The position numbers were made by a program, and so were the translations under genes. A stretch of DNA of 64,000 bases. It comes from Escherichia coli. Lineage in GTDB: Bacteria; Pseudomonadota; Gammaproteobacteria; Enterobacterales; Enterobacteriaceae. Positions 354-35,149 of this stretch are shown here, piece after piece. The stretch lies in assembly GCF_003019035.1 (NCBI RefSeq), contig NZ_CP027447.1; one strand, given 5' to 3'. The notes under the pieces are model-generated. The model ran no database searches, had not been told where the DNA came from, and saw only the letters and a program-made list of their open reading frames with translations. The stretch's first letter is position 1, and every line of letters begins with the position of its first letter.

Positions 354-2135
354 ATGAATGCTGCCCTGACTGAACGACTGGTTTATGTCGCCCGCGCGGC
401 ACGTGACGCGGGGCATGGTAAACGCGGTGCAATATACGACGCTGCCTGTGCTGAACTTGGCATGTCCCGCGCCACTCTGCTGCGCAGGCTGAAGGAGGTC
501 TCTGTGACTGATAAACGCAAAAAACGCGCCGATGCCGGGCGCAGCGCTCTGACCCGCGACGAAGCCGCGCTGATATCTGCCACACTGCGTGAGGCCACCC
601 GCAAGAACGGTAAGCGTCTCTATTCCATCGCAGATGCAGTGGAAACCCTGCGGGCTAACGGCTTTATCTCCGCAGGCAGAACAGATGAAACCACCGGTGA
701 GTTTTTCCCGTTGTCCGAAGATGCCATCAGTCGTGCCCTGCGTAACTATGGCCTGCACCCGGAACAACTGGATGCCCCTGCACCGCATACCGAAGTGGCC
801 AGTCTGCATCCCAATCATGTCTGGCAGATTGACGCCTCACTCTGCACGCTTTACTACCTGAGCAATGGACATAAAGGGCTGCAGGTGATGGACAGCGCGA
901 AGTTCTACAAGAACAAGCCCGCTAACCTTGCCCGTATCGCCAGTGACCGCGTGTGGAGTTACGAGATTACCGACCATGCCAGCGGCTGGATTTACGTTGA
1001 GTATGTGACGGGCGCGGAATCCGGTGAGAACCTGTGTTCTGTGCTTATCAACGCCATGCAGGAGCGCGGTGGCGCAGACGTGCTGCACGGCGTGCCGAAA
1101 ATACTCTATCTCGACCCTGGCTCGGCAAACACCGCGGGTATGACGAAAAACATGTGCCGCTCACTGGGCATCGACCTGATAGCGCACAGGCCGCATAACG
1201 CCCGCGCCACCGGACAGGTGGAAAAGGCGCGTGACATTATCGAACGCAAGCTGGAGCCGGGTCTGAAGTTCCGGCCGGTTCACAGTCTGGAAGAACTCAA
1301 CGCGCTGGCCGCGAAATGGCGCAGCCACTTTAACGCCACGGCTGTTCACAGCCGCCACGGTAAAACCCGCACGGATATCTGGCTGAAGATTACTGCTGAG
1401 CAGCTGAAAAAAGCGCCTTCCGTTGAAGTATGCCGTGAACTGGCTGTGGCGACACCAGAACTCCGCAAAGTCACGCCAAAACTTCGTGTCTCGTTCCGGG
1501 GCACTGAATTTGACGTATCAACGGTACCGGGCGTACTGGTTGGTGAAAAACTGATGATTACCCGTAACCCATGGCGCAGCGATGTGGCACAGGTGGTTCT
1601 GACCGGTGAGGACGGCCACGAGACGTTCTTCCTGGTCGAAGAGGTCAGAAAGAACGAGTTTGGCTTTGCTGAAGGCGCGGCGGTATTTGGCGAAAGTTAC
1701 AAAGCCCTGCCGGAAACCCCGGCACAGATGGCGGCAAAAGAAACCGAAGCGCTGGTTACCGGTACAGACAACGCCGCAGATGCAGCCGCCGCACGCAAGG
1801 CGAAGGCGCTGCCGTTCGGCGGGCGGCTTGACCCGTATAAACATATCGACGACACCACACTTCCGGCCTATATGCCGAAGCGTGGTCAGGCCTCTGACGT
1901 ACGCGGGCCGCGCACTGAACAACGTCCCATGACTCATGTGGAGGCCGCGAAAGCCCTGCGCGATAAGTTCAGCGCCGACGGCCTTACCTGGACGCCGGAA
2001 CATTACCGCCAGTTAACGGCACAGTACCCGGACGGCGTACCGGAAGCTGCACTGGATGAAGTCATGGCCACGCTGACCACGCCGGCCCGCAGCAGCGTTA
2101 TCAGCAGCGTTATCAGCATTGTTAACGGCAACTGA
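354..2135 (+). CDS. Mu-like DDE transposase (A-like, integrase-core family)
   Basis: 593 aa ORF, ATG at 354 with GGAGG upstream; integrase-core-like segment (HVWQIDAS...); sits directly upstream of a B-like ATPase as in Mu A-B. Confidence 0.8.
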   Translation: MNAALTERLVYVARAARDAGHGKRGAIYDAACAELGMSRATLLRRLKEVSVTDKRKKRADAGRSALTRDEAALISATLREATRKNGKRLYSIADAVETLRANGFISAGRTDETTGEFFPLSEDAISRALRNYGLHPEQLDAPAPHTEVASLHPNHVWQIDASLCTLYYLSNGHKGLQVMDSAKFYKNKPANLARIASDRVWSYEITDHASGWIYVEYVTGAESGENLCSVLINAMQERGGADVLHGVPKILYLDPGSANTAGMTKNMCRSLGIDLIAHRPHNARATGQVEKARDIIERKLEPGLKFRPVHSLEELNALAAKWRSHFNATAVHSRHGKTRTDIWLKITAEQLKKAPSVEVCRELAVATPELRKVTPKLRVSFRGTEFDVSTVPGVLVGEKLMITRNPWRSDVAQVVLTGEDGHETFFLVEEVRKNEFGFAEGAAVFGESYKALPETPAQMAAKETEALVTGTDNAADAAAARKAKALPFGGRLDPYKHIDDTTLPAYMPKRGQASDVRGPRTEQRPMTHVEAAKALRDKFSADGLTWTPEHYRQLTAQYPDGVPEAALDEVMATLTTPARSSVISSVISIVNGN

Positions 2136-2145
2136 GGAGGAAAAC

Positions 2146-3312
2146 ATGCTGGTACTGAAGCAGCAACTGAAAGAGGCCCGTATCCCACAGGCGGTGGTGG
2201 CGAGAGCTGTCGATGTTTCTGAGGCCACGCTGGCCCAGATTGTGAATCATAACGCGTGGCCCCGCACCCGCCCCGGAGAAGTGCGCCGGCGTCTTGCGTC
2301 CTGGCTGGAAAGTCAGGGGATTGATACAACGAAGAGTTTTGATGCTGTACAGGGCGCGGCCACGCCCCGTACAGCGGGTACCACAGATAAAACGAGCCTC
2401 AGTGAGGAAGAGAATATGTTACTCAAAAAACAGGTGTTATTTCCAGCAACCAAAAAAGCGTTTGGTCTTTTCCGTGACCCGTTCGCCGACGAAGCCATGC
2501 AGGGTTCTGATGATGTGTTCACCACCCCGGACATTCGCTACGTGCGTGAGGCGCTGTACCAGACAGCCCGTCATGGTGGGTTTATGGCCGTCATCGGTGA
2601 GTCCGGTGCGGGTAAATCCACGCTGCGCCGCGACCTGACTGAACGTATCAACCGCGAGAATGCGCCGGTAATTGTTATCGAGCCATACATCATCGCTATG
2701 GAAGACAACGATGTGAAAGGGAAAACCCTGAAGGCAGCAGCTATTGCCGAAGCCATTATCAGTACCATCGCACCACTGGAAAGCATCAGACGCAGTCAGG
2801 ACGCCCGCTTTCGCCAGTTGCATCGCGTCCTGAAAGACAGCAGCCAGGCGGGGTTCAGCCACGTTCTGGTGATTGAGGAGGCTCACAGTCTGCCCATTCC
2901 GACACTGAAACACCTCAAACGCTTTTTTGAGCTGGAGTCCGGTTTCAAAAAACTGCTGTCCATCGTGCTGATTGGTCAGCCGGAACTGGCGACAAAACTG
3001 TCTGAACGCAATATGGAAGTCCGTGAAGTCGTTCAGCGCTGTGAGGTGGTCGAACTTCTGCCTCTGGACAATAACCTTGAAGAGTTTCTGACGTTCAAAC
3101 TGCAACGGGCCGGTAAACAACTGACGGACATTATGGACGCCAGTGCAGTGGATGCCATACGTGCCCGCCTGAGCAATCCGGGAAGTCATCGTAAAAATAT
3201 GGTCAGCCTGCTGTATCCGCTGGCCGTCAGTAACCTGGTGATAGCCGCCATGAATCTGGCCGCTGAAATCGGGGTTCCACAGGTCAACGCTGACGTTGTC
3301 AAAGGGGTTTAA
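2146..3312 (+). CDS. Mu B-like AAA+ transposition ATPase
   Basis: ATG 2146 preceded by GAGGAGG; Walker A GESGAGKST, Walker B-like VLVIEEAHSL; N-terminal HTH-like segment; overlaps A stop. Track ORF starts at TTG 2119, but the ATG at 2146 has the better RBS. Confidence 0.8.
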   Translation: MLVLKQQLKEARIPQAVVARAVDVSEATLAQIVNHNAWPRTRPGEVRRRLASWLESQGIDTTKSFDAVQGAATPRTAGTTDKTSLSEEENMLLKKQVLFPATKKAFGLFRDPFADEAMQGSDDVFTTPDIRYVREALYQTARHGGFMAVIGESGAGKSTLRRDLTERINRENAPVIVIEPYIIAMEDNDVKGKTLKAAAIAEAIISTIAPLESIRRSQDARFRQLHRVLKDSSQAGFSHVLVIEEAHSLPIPTLKHLKRFFELESGFKKLLSIVLIGQPELATKLSERNMEVREVVQRCEVVELLPLDNNLEEFLTFKLQRAGKQLTDIMDASAVDAIRARLSNPGSHRKNMVSLLYPLAVSNLVIAAMNLAAEIGVPQVNADVVKGV

Positions 3313-3314
3313 TA

Positions 3315-3584
3315 ATGAAATCCACCACAGGTATCAACCAGCAAATCAGCAAAGTGCAGTCAGCCATTATGGCGCTTAAGGCGACGAACACGGATGTACA
3401 AAGCATCACCATCAGGGGTAACAAACCTGTCATCCGCGTTTCCCGGAGTGCGCATTGCATGCGCATGCTTGAGCAGGGAAAGGCCTGTTATCTGTATACC
3501 GGACATGACCACAGGGGATATTTCCGTCAGGGCGTTTTCGAACTGCACGGCTGTCGCGTCGTGTGGCCGGAATCTTTGTGGTAA
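3315..3584 (+). CDS. hypothetical small protein (89 aa) between B and gam
   Basis: ATG 3315 with AAAGGGG RBS, 2 nt after B stop; no recognisable motif. Confidence 0.5.
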   Translation: MKSTTGINQQISKVQSAIMALKATNTDVQSITIRGNKPVIRVSRSAHCMRMLEQGKACYLYTGHDHRGYFRQGVFELHGCRVVWPESLW

Positions 3585-3611
3585 TCAGCACAACTGGAGA
3601 AATCATAAAAT

Positions 3612-4142
3612 ATGGCAAAAAGTACAAAAGGGGCAAAACGTATCAAGTCCGCAGCGGCACTCTGGGTACCAGGGACACGCGAAGAGGTCATTGAGGGCAT
3701 CAGACTGCTCGGTGACGCACAACGTGAACTGGTCAGGGCTGAAACAGAAATGAATGACGCCATTGGCGATATCACCGCACGTTATGCCCCGCTCACCGAG
3801 AGCCTGAAAAAACGCATGGCCGAACTGCAGTCCGGTATTCAGACATGGTGTGAGGCACACCGTGATGAACTGACCGGCAACGGGAAGGTGAAGTTCGCTA
3901 ACCTCACCACCGGCGAGGTGCAGTGGCGAAACCGTCCGCCATCAGTCAGTATCCGTGGAGCGGATAATGTTATTGAACTACTGAGACGTCTGGGGCTTGA
4001 GCGCTTTATTCGTGTAAAAGAGGAAATAAATAAAGATGCCATTCTGAATGAAAAAGAGGCCGTGAAAAATATTCCCGGTATTACCATAAAAAGTGATATT
4101 GAGGATTTTTCAATAATTCCTTTTGAGCAGGATGTGCAGTAA
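3612..4142 (+). CDS. gam: Gam-like host-nuclease inhibitor (Mu Gam / Ku-like DNA end-binding)
   Basis: 176 aa; N-terminus MAK...KRIKSAAA, ETEMNDAI, and C-terminal EDFSIIPFEQ closely match recalled phage Mu Gam. Confidence 0.88.
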   Translation: MAKSTKGAKRIKSAAALWVPGTREEVIEGIRLLGDAQRELVRAETEMNDAIGDITARYAPLTESLKKRMAELQSGIQTWCEAHRDELTGNGKVKFANLTTGEVQWRNRPPSVSIRGADNVIELLRRLGLERFIRVKEEINKDAILNEKEAVKNIPGITIKSDIEDFSIIPFEQDVQ

Positions 4143-4184
4143 ACACACCACGTTAATTATTTAATAAAAATATTTTCTTTTTTA

Positions 4185-4221
4185 TTCCGGCGTCAGCGCC
4201 GTGGGCTTCTGCACGCCGGAA
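4185..4221 (+). promoter_or_regulatory. inverted repeat / hairpin in AT-rich intergenic region after gam
   Basis: ttccggcgt (4185-4193) pairs with acgccggaa (4213-4221), preceded by a T-rich tract; may be a gam terminator or an operator for the next operon. Confidence 0.3.
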
Positions 4222-4239
4222 ACAGAGGAGAATTAAATT

Positions 4240-4434
4240 ATGATATTTAAATGTATTCAGTGCGAGAGGGATATAACAGCCCTGCGTTTTCACAGCGCCA
4301 TCGCCGTGATGTCCGGTAAATACCACATCCCTGCGGTACGCGTCACCCTGGTCTGCCCGTACTGCAGCCAGCATTTTTCGGCGGACGTGCCCGTCATGGA
4401 ATTCTCCCGCCCTGACAGGGAGGACGCGCAATGA
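4240..4434 (+). CDS. small zinc-ribbon protein (64 aa; CxxC...CxxC)
   Basis: ATG 4240 with GAGGAG RBS; Cys pairs CIQC and CPYC about 30 residues apart. Confidence 0.55.
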   Translation: MIFKCIQCERDITALRFHSAIAVMSGKYHIPAVRVTLVCPYCSQHFSADVPVMEFSRPDREDAQ

Positions 4435-4703
4435 TTACCCCACAGGAAGCACGACAGCGCACCCGAACCCTTGTTGAACACTATGTCAACGAGTGTGAAT
4501 GCCGCGACCTCACCGATGTGAAGCACGTCCTGACGGCGCTAATCAGCATGGCCGCTCAGGCCATTGTGGCGACCAACGGAAAGGCGGCTGCCCTGCAGGT
4601 ACTGGTGAACACACTCACCCACACGGCAGAGCATGAGGTGCCGTACCGGATGGAAACCACTGCAGAAGGCGGCCTGCACATCACCGTCAGCCGGAAGCAC
4701 TGA
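4431..4703 (+). CDS. hypothetical protein (90 aa)
   Basis: ATGA start/stop overlap with the preceding gene, GGGAGG RBS; no recognised domain. Confidence 0.5.
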   Translation: MITPQEARQRTRTLVEHYVNECECRDLTDVKHVLTALISMAAQAIVATNGKAAALQVLVNTLTHTAEHEVPYRMETTAEGGLHITVSRKH

Positions 4704-4712
4704 GGGCGCGGC

Positions 4713-5009
4713 ATGACACGAAACACCGAACTCACCCGCACCGCCCTCTACCGTCTGGCCCTGCACCGTTTCGGGCCGGACGCACAGGCCCTGAAACTGA
4801 CAGAAGAGGCCGCTGAACTGGCGGCCAGTGCTGCCCGCAATCTGAACGGACAGGGCAACGAAAGTGACCTCGCGGCAGAGCTGGCAGACGTGGAAATCAT
4901 GACAGAGCAATTGCGCCTTCAGGGGATGGACCGGCTGATTGACTTCCACAAACAGAAAAAACTGGAACGTCTGGCTGCACGACTGGGCGTGATTTACACG
5001 AACGAGTAA
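4713..5009 (+). CDS. MazG-like nucleotide pyrophosphohydrolase-domain protein (putative)
   Basis: 98 aa; EEAAELA and ELADVEI motifs resemble the EExxE and ExxD helices of small MazG/NTP-PPase proteins; GAGGG RBS. Confidence 0.45.
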   Translation: MTRNTELTRTALYRLALHRFGPDAQALKLTEEAAELAASAARNLNGQGNESDLAAELADVEIMTEQLRLQGMDRLIDFHKQKKLERLAARLGVIYTNE

Positions 5010-5023
5010 CCGGGAGGCATTCA

Positions 5024-5239
5024 ATGGCTGACATACTCAGGGAAATCACCGCATGGATACTGATTCTTACTGGCCTGGCGACATGCCTCAGTGCGGGGGC
5101 AGCCCTGGCTGCCCTGCTGATGCACATAACAACACAGTGGTTATGGGAAAAGCTTAAAGCAGCATACAGCCTGAAAGAGCTGTCCGACGCTGTCCGGGCA
5201 TGGAAACGGCAGAAAAATACCGGAGATACAGAACAATGA
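5024..5239 (+). CDS. small membrane protein (71 aa, one predicted TM helix)
   Basis: ATG 5024 with GGGAGG RBS; hydrophobic segment ITAWILILTGLATCLSAGAALAALLM; ATGA overlap with the next gene. Confidence 0.5.
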   Translation: MADILREITAWILILTGLATCLSAGAALAALLMHITTQWLWEKLKAAYSLKELSDAVRAWKRQKNTGDTEQ

Positions 5240-5919
5240 CAGACCAGAATAAACACATTGAGAAACTGAAAAAGTTGCTGGCGCTGGCCGCATCCGGCAA
5301 CCCGCACGAGGCCGCTCTGGCACTGCGCCGAGCCCGTAAACTGATGGATGTTCACGGCATCACACATTCCGACATTGCTATGAGTGATATTGATGAAACC
5401 ATCAGTCATTACTGGCCGACAGGCAGTCTCCGTCCACCGCGCTACATGCTGGGCCTGATGAACATCATCCGCGAGGCATTTGGTGTTAACTCCATCATTC
5501 ACCCCGGCACGCATCCGTCTGTGGGGTTCTACGGTAACCGGGAACGAGCGGCACTGGCTGCGTACACCTGGGAAGTGCTGGTCCGCCAGCTGAAAAAGGC
5601 GCGTCAGCAGTATATCAGCGCACAGAACAAAAGAATAAAAAACGCCACCCGTACCAGCCGTGGAGACCAGTTTGCTGAAGGCTGGGTACTGGCCGTTATC
5701 AGTGAAATACAGTCCTTTGCCCTGACCGATGATGAGCGTGAACTGATGCAACAGTGGCTGGAACATAAATACCCGCAAACGCAAACCACCAGGGCGCGTA
5801 AACCGGGAAGAAGCCGCAATGGCGACGCCTCGCGCTATGCGGGGTTTCGTGAAGGGCAGAACGTCAGACTGCACCGCCCGGTCAGTGGGCAGGAACAACA
5901 GAAACTGGAGGCCAGATGA
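5236..5919 (+). CDS. DUF2786-like phage protein (227 aa)
   Basis: N-terminal motif KLKKLLALAASGNPHEAALALRRARKLM is typical of the DUF2786 family; GGAGA RBS. Confidence 0.55.
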   Translation: MTDQNKHIEKLKKLLALAASGNPHEAALALRRARKLMDVHGITHSDIAMSDIDETISHYWPTGSLRPPRYMLGLMNIIREAFGVNSIIHPGTHPSVGFYGNRERAALAAYTWEVLVRQLKKARQQYISAQNKRIKNATRTSRGDQFAEGWVLAVISEIQSFALTDDERELMQQWLEHKYPQTQTTRARKPGRSRNGDASRYAGFREGQNVRLHRPVSGQEQQKLEAR

Positions 5920-6146
5920 TTACGCTATCAGGTAACAGCCGGAAATTAAAAGCCTGCCGAATATCTGCCAGATACCTTTTTGCCCGCGCCTTTTTTAAGA
6001 ACGTCAGGCCGGGGATCACAATTGGTGTTATTGCCGGACGCGAACAGGTTGAAAAATACATGTCAGGTGCATGGTGGGATAACGACCCTGTCATTGCTGC
6101 CCGTAATATTCATATCAGTTGGGGGGATATTCAGAATGACGGCTGA
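5916..6146 (+). CDS. hypothetical protein (76 aa)
   Basis: ATGA overlap with DUF2786 gene stop, GGAG RBS 5 nt upstream; no domain recognised. Confidence 0.4.
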   Translation: MITLSGNSRKLKACRISARYLFARAFFKNVRPGITIGVIAGREQVEKYMSGAWWDNDPVIAARNIHISWGDIQNDG

Positions 6147-6351
6147 ATCTGTTGTATGTGCCCTGTTCTGGTATTGTTTTGTCGGTTGGTGTACTGCTGA
6201 ACTGCACCGCCGTTCAGGGTTTTATTCACGTTACAGTGGTGCCGGCTACTGGATTAGCTGGTCGGTGATGTTCCTGTGCTGGCCTGTGGCGCTTCCTTTA
6301 TATGTCGGTTATATCGGTGGCGCAGGTAAAAGGAGCAACGATGATGACTAA
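6136..6351 (+). CDS. small membrane protein (71 aa, two predicted TM helices)
   Basis: ATG 6136 preceded by GGGGGG; two hydrophobic, W/C-rich helices; 3' end overlaps gemA start. Confidence 0.45.
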   Translation: MTAESVVCALFWYCFVGWCTAELHRRSGFYSRYSGAGYWISWSVMFLCWPVALPLYVGYIGGAGKRSNDDD

Positions 6352-6793
6352 ACAACGTCTTATCCAGCTCATTCATATTGCCCGTAATGAACTGGGTATG
6401 GATGAAGACACCTACCGCCAGATGTTACAGGGGCTGACCGGTAAAGCCTCAACCAAAGGAATGGATACCACACAACTAAACTGCGTGCTGGAATCCATGA
6501 AAAGGAAAGGCTTTCGCGTTAAGCCTGCCGGAAAAGCCAGCTCCGGTTTACCGCTGGATAACCATCCGCAGTCCAGGAAAATCCGTGCGCTATGGCTTGA
6601 AATGGCTGCTGCCGGCATTGTTCGTGACCGTTCAGAAAATGCATTAGCGCGGTGGATCAAGCGGGAAACGGGCATCAGCGCCCTGCGCTGGCTCAATACT
6701 GAACAGGCAAGCAGTGTTATTGAGAAACTGAAGAAGTGGCAGCACAGAGCTGCGGGAGTAAAACATGAGCGACCTGAATCAGTTTCGAAGTAA
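6341..6793 (+). CDS. gemA: GemA-like protein (Mu gp16 family)
   Basis: ATG 6341 with AAAGGAG RBS; N-terminus MMTKQRLIQLIHIARNELGMDEDTYRQ matches the GemA family; 3' end overlaps mor by 29 nt. Confidence 0.8.
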   Translation: MMTKQRLIQLIHIARNELGMDEDTYRQMLQGLTGKASTKGMDTTQLNCVLESMKRKGFRVKPAGKASSGLPLDNHPQSRKIRALWLEMAAAGIVRDRSENALARWIKRETGISALRWLNTEQASSVIEKLKKWQHRAAGVKHERPESVSK

Positions 6794-7163
6794 AGGGCCG
6801 GAACTCCTGGTGGAGCTGGCACAGCATACCTCTGAGACCGTTCGCGAGATTATTGATATTGAGCCCGCAATTGCCGACCAGATTGGTCAGGCCGTCGCGA
6901 ACCGAATGATGCAGGTCTGGGGCGGGCAAAACGTTTATTTCCCGATGGGCATGGTATGGAAGGTCAGTCAGCGCGACCGGGAAATCTTCAGGGAGTTTAA
7001 CGGACGCAACCACCACGAACTGGCCCGCAAGTTTGGTGTTTCGCTTCAGTGGGTCTACAGCGTGGTTAAGCGGGTCAGAAAAGAAGAACTGGATCGGATG
7101 CAGGGCAGGTTGTTTGATGAAGATCTGCCAGAGGAGACGAAAGACGTTAACAAATCCAGATAA
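6765..7163 (+). CDS. mor: Mor-like middle-operon transcriptional activator
   Basis: 132 aa; GGQNVYFP motif and C-terminal HTH resemble Mu Mor; GGGAG RBS. Confidence 0.82.
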   Translation: MSDLNQFRSKGPELLVELAQHTSETVREIIDIEPAIADQIGQAVANRMMQVWGGQNVYFPMGMVWKVSQRDREIFREFNGRNHHELARKFGVSLQWVYSVVKRVRKEELDRMQGRLFDEDLPEETKDVNKSR

Positions 7164-34991: not shown

Positions 34992-35068
34992 GCGTTCATA
35001 GCTCAGTTGGTTAGAGCACCACCTTGACATGGTGGGGGTCGTTGGTTCGAGTCCAATTGAACGCACCA
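34992..35068 (+). tRNA. valV: tRNA-Val (anticodon GAC)
   Basis: 77-nt cloverleaf GCGTTCATAGCTCAGTTGGTTAGAGC...TTCGAGTCC...ACGCACCA. Confidence 0.93.
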
Positions 35069-35072
35069 TCCT

Positions 35073-35149
35073 GCGTCCGTAGCTCAGTTGGTTAGAGCAC
35101 CACCTTGACATGGTGGGGGTCGGTGGTTCGAGTCCACTCGGACGCACCA
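35073..35149 (+). tRNA. valW: tRNA-Val (anticodon GAC)
   Basis: Second near-identical 77-nt tRNA 4 nt downstream, ending CCA. Confidence 0.93.

Follow-up and report, generated by a model that had tools for sequence, protein, structure and literature searches.

Whether gene B of a Mu-like prophage encodes one transposition ATPase or two is the question raised by a 64,000-nucleotide (nt) stretch of Escherichia coli DNA (NCBI RefSeq assembly GCF_003019035.1, contig NZ_CP027447.1), hereafter termed the window. Here, the Shine-Dalgarno (SD)-to-ATG motif at the start of B, TGAGGAGGAAAACATG (2133-2148), recurs inside the gene as TGAGGAAGAGAATATG (2403-2418) with 13 of 16 bases identical; the two copies share a reading frame, are offset by 270 nt (i.e., 90 codons), and each consist of an SD and an ATG followed by Leu codons. 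An examination of the letters alone (the sequence-only reading) had pointed out this recurrence and proposed the second copy as an internal start, yielding an isoform of ~298 amino acids that would lack the N-terminal helix-turn-helix (HTH) segment. The positions, the frame, and both protein lengths (388 amino acids from ATG 2146; 298 amino acids from ATG 2416) were borne out, and comparative evidence strongly backs the internal start itself. The ATG, a canonically spaced SD, and unstructured mRNA are conserved while the surrounding linker varies, and relatives with only a short-form gene exist; we thus consider it likely that the second motif is a real region of translation initiation within B that selection has kept. 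To the same degree, the gene probably gives rise to two isoforms, namely the full-length B-long and a predicted HTH-less B-short of 298 amino acids.

Conservation of the proposed internal start across the B family

Homologous DNA came from annotated phages and from scanning a single genome of each species, giving 49 true family loci at 36-99% identity that span Enterobacterales, Pasteurellaceae, Neisseria, Burkholderia, Pseudomonas, Stenotrophomonas, Comamonas, Orbaceae, delta-proteobacteria, and a cyanophage. An independent protein set held 148 sequences, i.e., the window protein and 147 others that each represent a separate cluster at 50% identity. Met91, encoded by the internal ATG, is invariant in 23 homologs of 64-100% identity. 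At the DNA level, all 49 loci carry an ATG at this junction, placed 15 codons before the conserved Phe106 in the MLLRKQxLxP type and 9 codons before it in the ML[ST]P type. Likewise, a Met stands 9-17 residues before the conserved Phe in 147 of the 148 protein sequences (108 at -15, 23 at -9, 14 at -14, and 2 at -17), with the residues just upstream of it being hypervariable.

An SD core (GGAG, GAGG, or AGGA) lies 3-9 nt from this ATG, with a mode of 7, in 41 of 42 distinct homolog upstream sequences; of the remaining in-frame ATGs inside these genes, only 18 of 300 have one. The positional profile of such cores has one narrow maximum at -18 to -7, with ~2.3 cores per sequence versus ~0.1 per 6-nt bin elsewhere. 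The same internal ATG and SD are present for the B proteins of phages B3, BcepMu (gp08, 'Eha'), and JBD/Fc02. Across the family, the core is coded by varying residue pairs at sliding codon positions (EE, ED, KD, KE, QE-C, TE, ME, WE-V, PE, and VE), as in GAG-GAA (EE), AAG-GAC (KD), CAG-GAG-TGC (QEC), ACG-GAG (TE), ATG-GAG (ME), TGG-GAG-GTG (WEV), CCG-GAG (PE), and AAG-GAG-TCA (KES). Because changing amino-acid pairs thus spell one core, the constraint would appear to act on the nucleotides; varying peptides around a constant core are what selection at the nucleotide level, and not at the protein level, predicts. When the seven upstream codons were recoded synonymously with each gene's own codon usage, an SD core was expected in 27.5 of the 42 sequences, versus the 41 observed (Poisson-binomial P=3e-8), and collapsing the test to 35 distinct peptide contexts still gave P=2e-6.

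The mRNA around the internal start is also weakly structured. Averaged over the family, 40-nt windows have a folding energy of about -4 kcal/mol between -30 and +30 relative to the ATG, versus -7 to -14 kcal/mol further away. For the 48 nt surrounding the ATG, the folding energy is -5.1 kcal/mol compared to -8.1 kcal/mol for synonymous recodings, and this stretch is less folded than these recodings in 95% of the 42 sequences (Wilcoxon 3e-10, with kinship ignored). The G+C content at third codon positions is 0.57 around the internal ATG versus 0.70 gene-wide.

First starts and short-form genes in relatives

In most family members, the first ATG overlaps or abuts the stop codon of the upstream transposase gene A (ATGA, TGATG, or TAATG), with its SD located inside the end of A, an arrangement which suggests that translation of B-long is coupled to that of A. 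In the annotated records of three close relatives and of phages JD18 and Komp_PAO1_1 (five in total), B starts at the equivalent of the window's first ATG. Predicted lengths across the family fall into a long class of 379-429 amino acids and a short class of 283-310 amino acids.

Two loci carry only the short form, and these alone were counted as such. In a Treponema metagenome-assembled genome (L044; 1570-2430), an rve transposase is followed after 58 nt by a B of 286 amino acids, while in Geomonas silvestris (L046; 1531-2382), an rve transposase is followed after 43 nt by a B of 283 amino acids; neither B has an HTH domain. Both genes begin at the Met that is internal elsewhere; an in-frame stop lies 4 codons upstream of it in L044 and 22 codons upstream in L046, and both starts are preceded by a strong SD (TAGGAGAAAAAG-ATG and GGGGAGGTAGAG-ATG, respectively). 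The 298 amino acids predicted for B-short match these stand-alone proteins in length, and since such genes occur, the short form is, as judged from their sequences, a viable architecture.

Gene callers also choose the internal ATG on 5'-truncated contigs (P0075, P0119, P0184, and P0211). Two of these (P0184/L093 and P0211/L095) were rejected as short-only genes, as the frame remains open to the end of the truncated contig. In a further two metagenomic assemblies (L094, 1236-2454; L037, 1124-2424), two distinct open reading frames (ORFs) encode the HTH domain and the ATPase. The L094 version (P0197) departs from a fused frame through a single additional A, located in an A9 run of the linker; this could reflect an assembly or sequencing error, a real split, or slippage; given this single A and the metagenomic origin of both assemblies, L094 and L037 were not relied upon as two-gene versions.

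The two motif copies in the window

Extended to 31 nt, copy 1 (2133-2163; TGAGGAGGAAAACATGCTGGTACTGAAGCAG) and copy 2 (2403-2433; TGAGGAAGAGAATATGTTACTCAAAAAACAG) agree at 20 of 31 bases. When the copies were extended without gaps by 60 nt in both directions, no similarity was detected past these 31 nt, and a repeat search returned only a 19-nt family whose identity is 74% and whose third member, at 2874, is a chance copy. At ≤3 mismatches, the 16-mer occurs at 3 places in the window versus 0.48 expected, a count reached in no shuffle. As a repeat, the similarity is therefore weak, yet above chance.

The sequence-only reading had translated both copies, giving EEENMLVLKQ for copy 1. This does not hold, as the 'EEEN' of that copy is the untranslated spacer between the A stop (TGA, 2133-2135) and the B start. 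The upstream TTG 2119, from which this 'EEEN' would be translated, was rejected as a B start; it has no SD, and the checked annotations use ATG 2146 or its equivalent. As to whether the motif repeat recurs in homologs, each of the two sites is kept as a start region; however, the repeat as such is not conserved, since the sequence upstream of the first start in relatives is unlike that of the window. An internal promoter giving a separate short mRNA was not detected in a sigma-70 scan of 1900-2600, a crude scan that leaves such a promoter possible.

Alternative explanations

Several observations weigh against two isoforms. One protein of the 148 (P0196) has no junction Met (…EEDFVVIPKQALSQ), although the Val at this junction could correspond to a GTG start, and phage Komp_PAO1_1 (L010) has no 4-nt SD core. 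In the window, the internal SD is weaker than that of the first start, with anti-SD duplexes of -6.5 and -12.1 kcal/mol, respectively. The SD-core statistics treat related sequences as independent, with only identical contexts collapsed. The function that B-short may have is proposed by analogy only. Finally, literature searches covering MuB domains, the B protein of B3/BcepMu, transposable phages, and internal starts, mostly outside subscription journals, returned no report of a two-product B and no proteomics, toeprint, or ribosome-profiling data for a short B.

A more substantial objection is that the acidic peptide context by itself yields an SD core in ~65% of synonymous recodings, meaning that much of the SD signal is tied to amino-acid choice. 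The acidic patch and the ensuing Met-Leu-Leu could thus be a protein-level motif that serves the folded protein (e.g., as a capping or contact segment of the AAA+ module), with the SD-like DNA arising as a by-product of Glu and Asp codons and no short isoform being made. The strong conservation of the post-Met segment (MLLKKQVLFPATKKAFGLFRDPF) as protein would fit this explanation. Against it, the pre-Met residues vary in both identity and position (KD, QEC, WEV, TEE, KES) while the nucleotide core stays at SD spacing and exceeds the synonymous expectation; synonymous sites also keep the mRNA open, the junction residue is Met rather than Leu, Ile, or Val in all but one sequence, and stand-alone genes begin at precisely this Met. 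We therefore regard a protein-level motif as unlikely, yet it is the foremost of the rivals, ahead of a gene-fusion fossil, an element acting on elongation, and a duplication or chance resemblance, in that order. In a gene-fusion fossil, an HTH gene and an ExeA-type ATPase gene would have been joined, leaving behind the old ATPase start signals without present function. The distant ExeA-type homolog L063 (MYLDFYGL) indeed starts at a Met aligned with Met91, and the short-only and possibly split layouts (L044, L046, L037, and L094) are in line with such an origin. Unselected signals, however, would be lost at 36-45% identity, a divergence at which the neighbouring linker keeps neither its sequence nor its length, and the synonymous-site signals favour ongoing selection; moreover, a fusion origin is compatible with a start that is still used. 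We consider a functionless relic improbable.

The internal SD might instead act on elongating ribosomes, either through a domain-boundary pause that aids HTH folding or as a frameshift stimulator. Its position exactly at the boundary between linker and AAA+ module, as well as the CTC AAA AAA CAG run that follows the ATG in the window, would suit such a role. Conversely, a fixed spacing of 3-9 nt to a conserved ATG is a signature of initiation, the A-run is not conserved (relatives have MLLRKQ, MLLAKQ, or MLMNKQ), and no alternative-frame ORF is evident in the window ORF list; SD-induced ribosome pausing is itself disputed. A programmed frameshift at CTC AAA AAA CAG was accordingly rejected, the Lys-Lys run not being conserved in relatives, and an elongation element of either type is, in our estimation, slightly more improbable still. 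Lastly, the ancestral duplication that the sequence-only reading had raised, or a chance resemblance without biological meaning, could draw on the 13/16 identity and the alike first residues (ML.LK..L versus MLL.KQ.L). The similarity is nonetheless confined to SD, ATG, and Leu codons, with identity at background outside the 31 nt; the first-start upstream sequence differs in most relatives, whereas the internal site is conserved on its own. A tandem or segmental duplication of the gene start was thus rejected, and this explanation is effectively excluded.

Proposed mechanism and implications

Under the favoured two-isoform reading, ribosomes would start at two places on the A-B mRNA. Initiation at ATG 2146, adjacent to or overlapping the A stop and served by a strong SD, would probably be coupled to A where the two overlap, and would produce B-long, comprising an XRE-type HTH, a flexible linker, and an ExeA-type AAA+ ATPase. 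Initiation at ATG 2416, via the GAGGA seven nt upstream in an unstructured stretch, would produce B-short, i.e., the AAA+ module alone, from the exact end of the disordered linker. B-short, if made in vivo as we infer, would co-assemble with B-long into an ATP-dependent oligomer or filament on target DNA, such that the ratio of the two starts might set the number of peripheral HTH domains on the assembly, in analogy to the mixed oligomers of ClpB95/ClpB80 and T7 gp4A/gp4B. This number may in turn tune whichever function the HTH has, e.g., contacting transposase A, linking filaments to one another, or recognizing DNA. Alternatively, B-short may dampen transposition in the manner of Tn5 Inh.

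A broader and more tentative proposition, which we regard as quite possible, is that nearly all B3/BcepMu-type phages and prophages (thousands of homologs) make two ATPase forms, with the HTH-less form being a built-in, co-assembling regulator of target capture, of immunity, or of how fast replicative transposition proceeds. The transposition ATPases MuB, TnsC, TniB, and IstB decide the site and timing of mobile DNA insertion, and to our knowledge no such isoform has been described for this class. If true, the two-isoform arrangement would constitute a control layer undescribed for any MuB/TnsC/TniB/IstB-type ATPase, and a conserved, genetically separable pair with and without the HTH would offer a direct experimental handle on the function of the N-terminal domain. 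This regulatory layer would apply to a prophage family that is found in ~12% of complete E. coli genomes and is widespread in Proteobacteria. It also bears on annotation, given that the internal start is already what gene callers choose on truncated contigs.

Gene context and domain architecture

Coordinates of the features discussed are compiled in Table 1.

Table 1. Features of the A-B region, with positions numbered along the window
Feature	Position	Strand	Evidence
Transposase A, 593 amino acids, rve DDE integrase core	354..2135	+	ORF list; Pfam rve E=3e-9
SD of full-length B start, GAGGAGG, 5-nt spacer, overlaps A stop, in copy 1	2134..2140	+	
B-long, full-length B3/BcepMu-type transposition ATPase, 388 amino acids, ExeA family / AAA_22	2146..3312	+	
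N-terminal domain, residues 1-60, four-helix XRE/Cro-type HTH	2146..2325	+	AlphaFold2 (AF2), Foldseek
Variable disordered linker, residues 61-90	2326..2415	+	AF2, alignments
A+T-richer, weakly structured mRNA stretch around internal start	2386..2446	+	Folding energies
Internal SD, GAGGA, 7-nt spacer to ATG 2416, in copy 2	2404..2408	+	
Internal in-frame ATG (Met91), proposed B-short start	2416..2418	+	
B-short, predicted 298-amino-acid isoform: AAA+ module with conserved N-terminal MLLKKQVLFPATKKAFGLFRDPF segment, no HTH	2416..3312	+	

B lies directly downstream of the rve transposase gene A, which close relatives annotate as a DDE-type integrase/transposase, and a homolog of Gam is encoded at 3612-4142, consistent with a Mu-like early operon order. 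The B protein matches PHROG 296 ('DNA transposition protein') over residues 1-387 (E=2.7e-93) and Pfam AAA_22 (PF13401) over residues 142-285, with 72.8 bits versus a curated gathering cutoff of 27. Its Walker A motif (GESGAGKS, residues 151-158) satisfies the pattern GxxGxGK[ST], with G154, G156, and K157 invariant among the 148 sequences. The B proteins of phages B3, BcepMu, phiE255, and JBD18 are 50-60% identical to that of the window, with B3 and BcepMu at 55-60%, and annotations of relatives carry B at full length. Given the rve-type A, the full-length PHROG 296 match, the identity to B3 and BcepMu, and the adjacent Gam, the setting is, on sequence grounds, a Mu-type prophage related to B3/BcepMu, of which this is the A-B transposition module. 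For B proteins of this family, the predicted role is ATP-dependent capture of target DNA or activation of the transposase.

With 95-99% identity, this early region recurs in phage PhiKM and in 636 of the 5426 complete E. coli genomes. When the first 25 kb of the window were queried against a phage collection, only about 366-7123 matched PhiKM (97.8%), with no near match from about 7.1 to 25 kb; the end of the PhiKM match at ~7.1 kb suggests a mosaic prophage. Two tandem tRNA-Val(GAC) genes at 34992-35149 possibly mark chromosomal DNA past the prophage end. Within the 3' end of transposase A, a 12-bp perfect tandem duplication (CAGCAGCGTTAT x2; 2090-2113) adds four residues (SSVI); EcPF7, KP12, and PhiKM have a single copy.

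Modelled alone, the N-terminal domain of B reached a predicted local distance difference test (pLDDT) score of 92.9, with helices at residues 3-10, 15-21, 26-35, and 43-56, and Foldseek aligned it with HigA, HipB, 434 Cro, and 434 repressor (1pra) at template-modelling (TM) scores of 0.55-0.70. The window protein has a weak HTH_3 match, while PF01381 is precomputed on Serratia homologs. Within aligned phage and enterobacterial homologs, N34, H35, and P39 are invariant and W38 is nearly so; the domain is likewise present in a 20-sequence N-domain alignment. Since these aligned homologs all share it, the domain is, from the alignments, no recent add-on.

Downstream of this domain, the linker is hypervariable and indel-rich in alignments, with AF2 pLDDT <50 for residues 69-94, after which the AAA+ fold follows; Met91 thus falls at the end of the low-confidence linker, immediately before the strongly conserved MLLKKQVLFPATKKAFGLFRDPF segment. 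The full-length AF2 model, built from a 23-sequence alignment, matched initiator-clade AAA+ proteins in Foldseek, namely Cdc6/ORC, the MuB filament protomer 8xvb (rank 2), and TnsC; the match to 8xvb_A (E=2.5e-5; TM 0.34/0.47) was obtained with a model whose pLDDT was only 68.7. A family profile searched against all PDB chains returned no sequence-related solved structure beyond generic P-loop matches at E≤0.01. In the linker-coding RNA, a stable GC-rich hairpin (CUGUACAGGGCG...CGCCCCGUACAG) forms at 2344-2376, 40-70 nt upstream of the internal ATG, and folding energy across the family is most negative around -60 relative to this ATG. A conserved upstream hairpin was nevertheless rejected, as a KP12 substitution breaks one pair without compensation.

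Comparison with known systems

The B proteins of phages B3, BcepMu, and JBD/Fc02 are true homologs at full length in the same A-B order, with no difference in kind from that of the window. MuB resembles B in its role, in its gene position as an ATPase after transposase A, and in having a four-helix HTH N-domain joined by a flexible link to an AAA+ module. This last likeness compares the AF2 model of B against MuB's N-terminal domain (NTD) as described (PMC11292022). MuB, of 312 amino acids, itself begins with a four-helix HTH domain that is flexibly tethered (PMC11292022); in the 2024 cryo-electron microscopy study, the NTD is invisible in the filament map and faces away from the DNA channel, and the authors write that it 'warrants further investigation' (PMC11292022). 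The sequence-only reading had taken the size of the short form as close to that of MuB, a misleading argument given that the 312 amino acids of MuB already contain the NTD; it is thus the full-length protein of 388 amino acids, and not B-short, that is the MuB counterpart. The two systems also differ in that no sequence relationship was detected (the family profile returned no MuB from PDB chains including 8xvb), and in that the AAA+ module of B is of ExeA/AAA_22 type. Near the NTD/AAA+ junction of Mu B (L092; 2359-3297), no SD-preceded start was found, with the candidates at residues 53, 64, 74, and 86 each giving an anti-SD duplex of -3.4 kcal/mol or weaker. With an SD and start at the domain junction only in the present family, the internal start is, by this comparison, specific to ExeA-type B proteins.

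In Tn5/IS50, Inh derives from the transposase itself and has its own promoter, whereas in the present case it is the ATPase partner that is concerned and the crude sigma-70 scan found no internal promoter. A further parallel is provided by gene 4 of phage T7, from which gp4A and gp4B are made from one ORF via an internal SD and ATG, with both forms present in one oligomer and the short form missing a small N-terminal nucleic-acid-recognition domain. This is a phage replication NTPase with two forms from one ORF, as proposed for B; gp4 is nevertheless a RecA-type helicase with a Zn-finger domain, as opposed to the AAA+ module and HTH of B, and the two are not homologous. ClpB (ClpB95/ClpB80) and ClpA are likewise AAA+ genes with an internal in-frame start that gives an isoform lacking only the N-terminal accessory domain; E. 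coli ClpB95 and ClpB80 co-assemble into mixed oligomers, and M. tuberculosis ClpB reportedly also exists as full-length and N-terminally truncated isoforms. ClpB, however, belongs to the chaperone AAA+ clade and has a substrate-binding N-domain, whereas B is an initiator-type transposition ATPase with an HTH and a short form that is predicted. In-frame internal starts that remove an N-terminal accessory domain are thus an already known class, within which the conservation of the B start is unusually deep.

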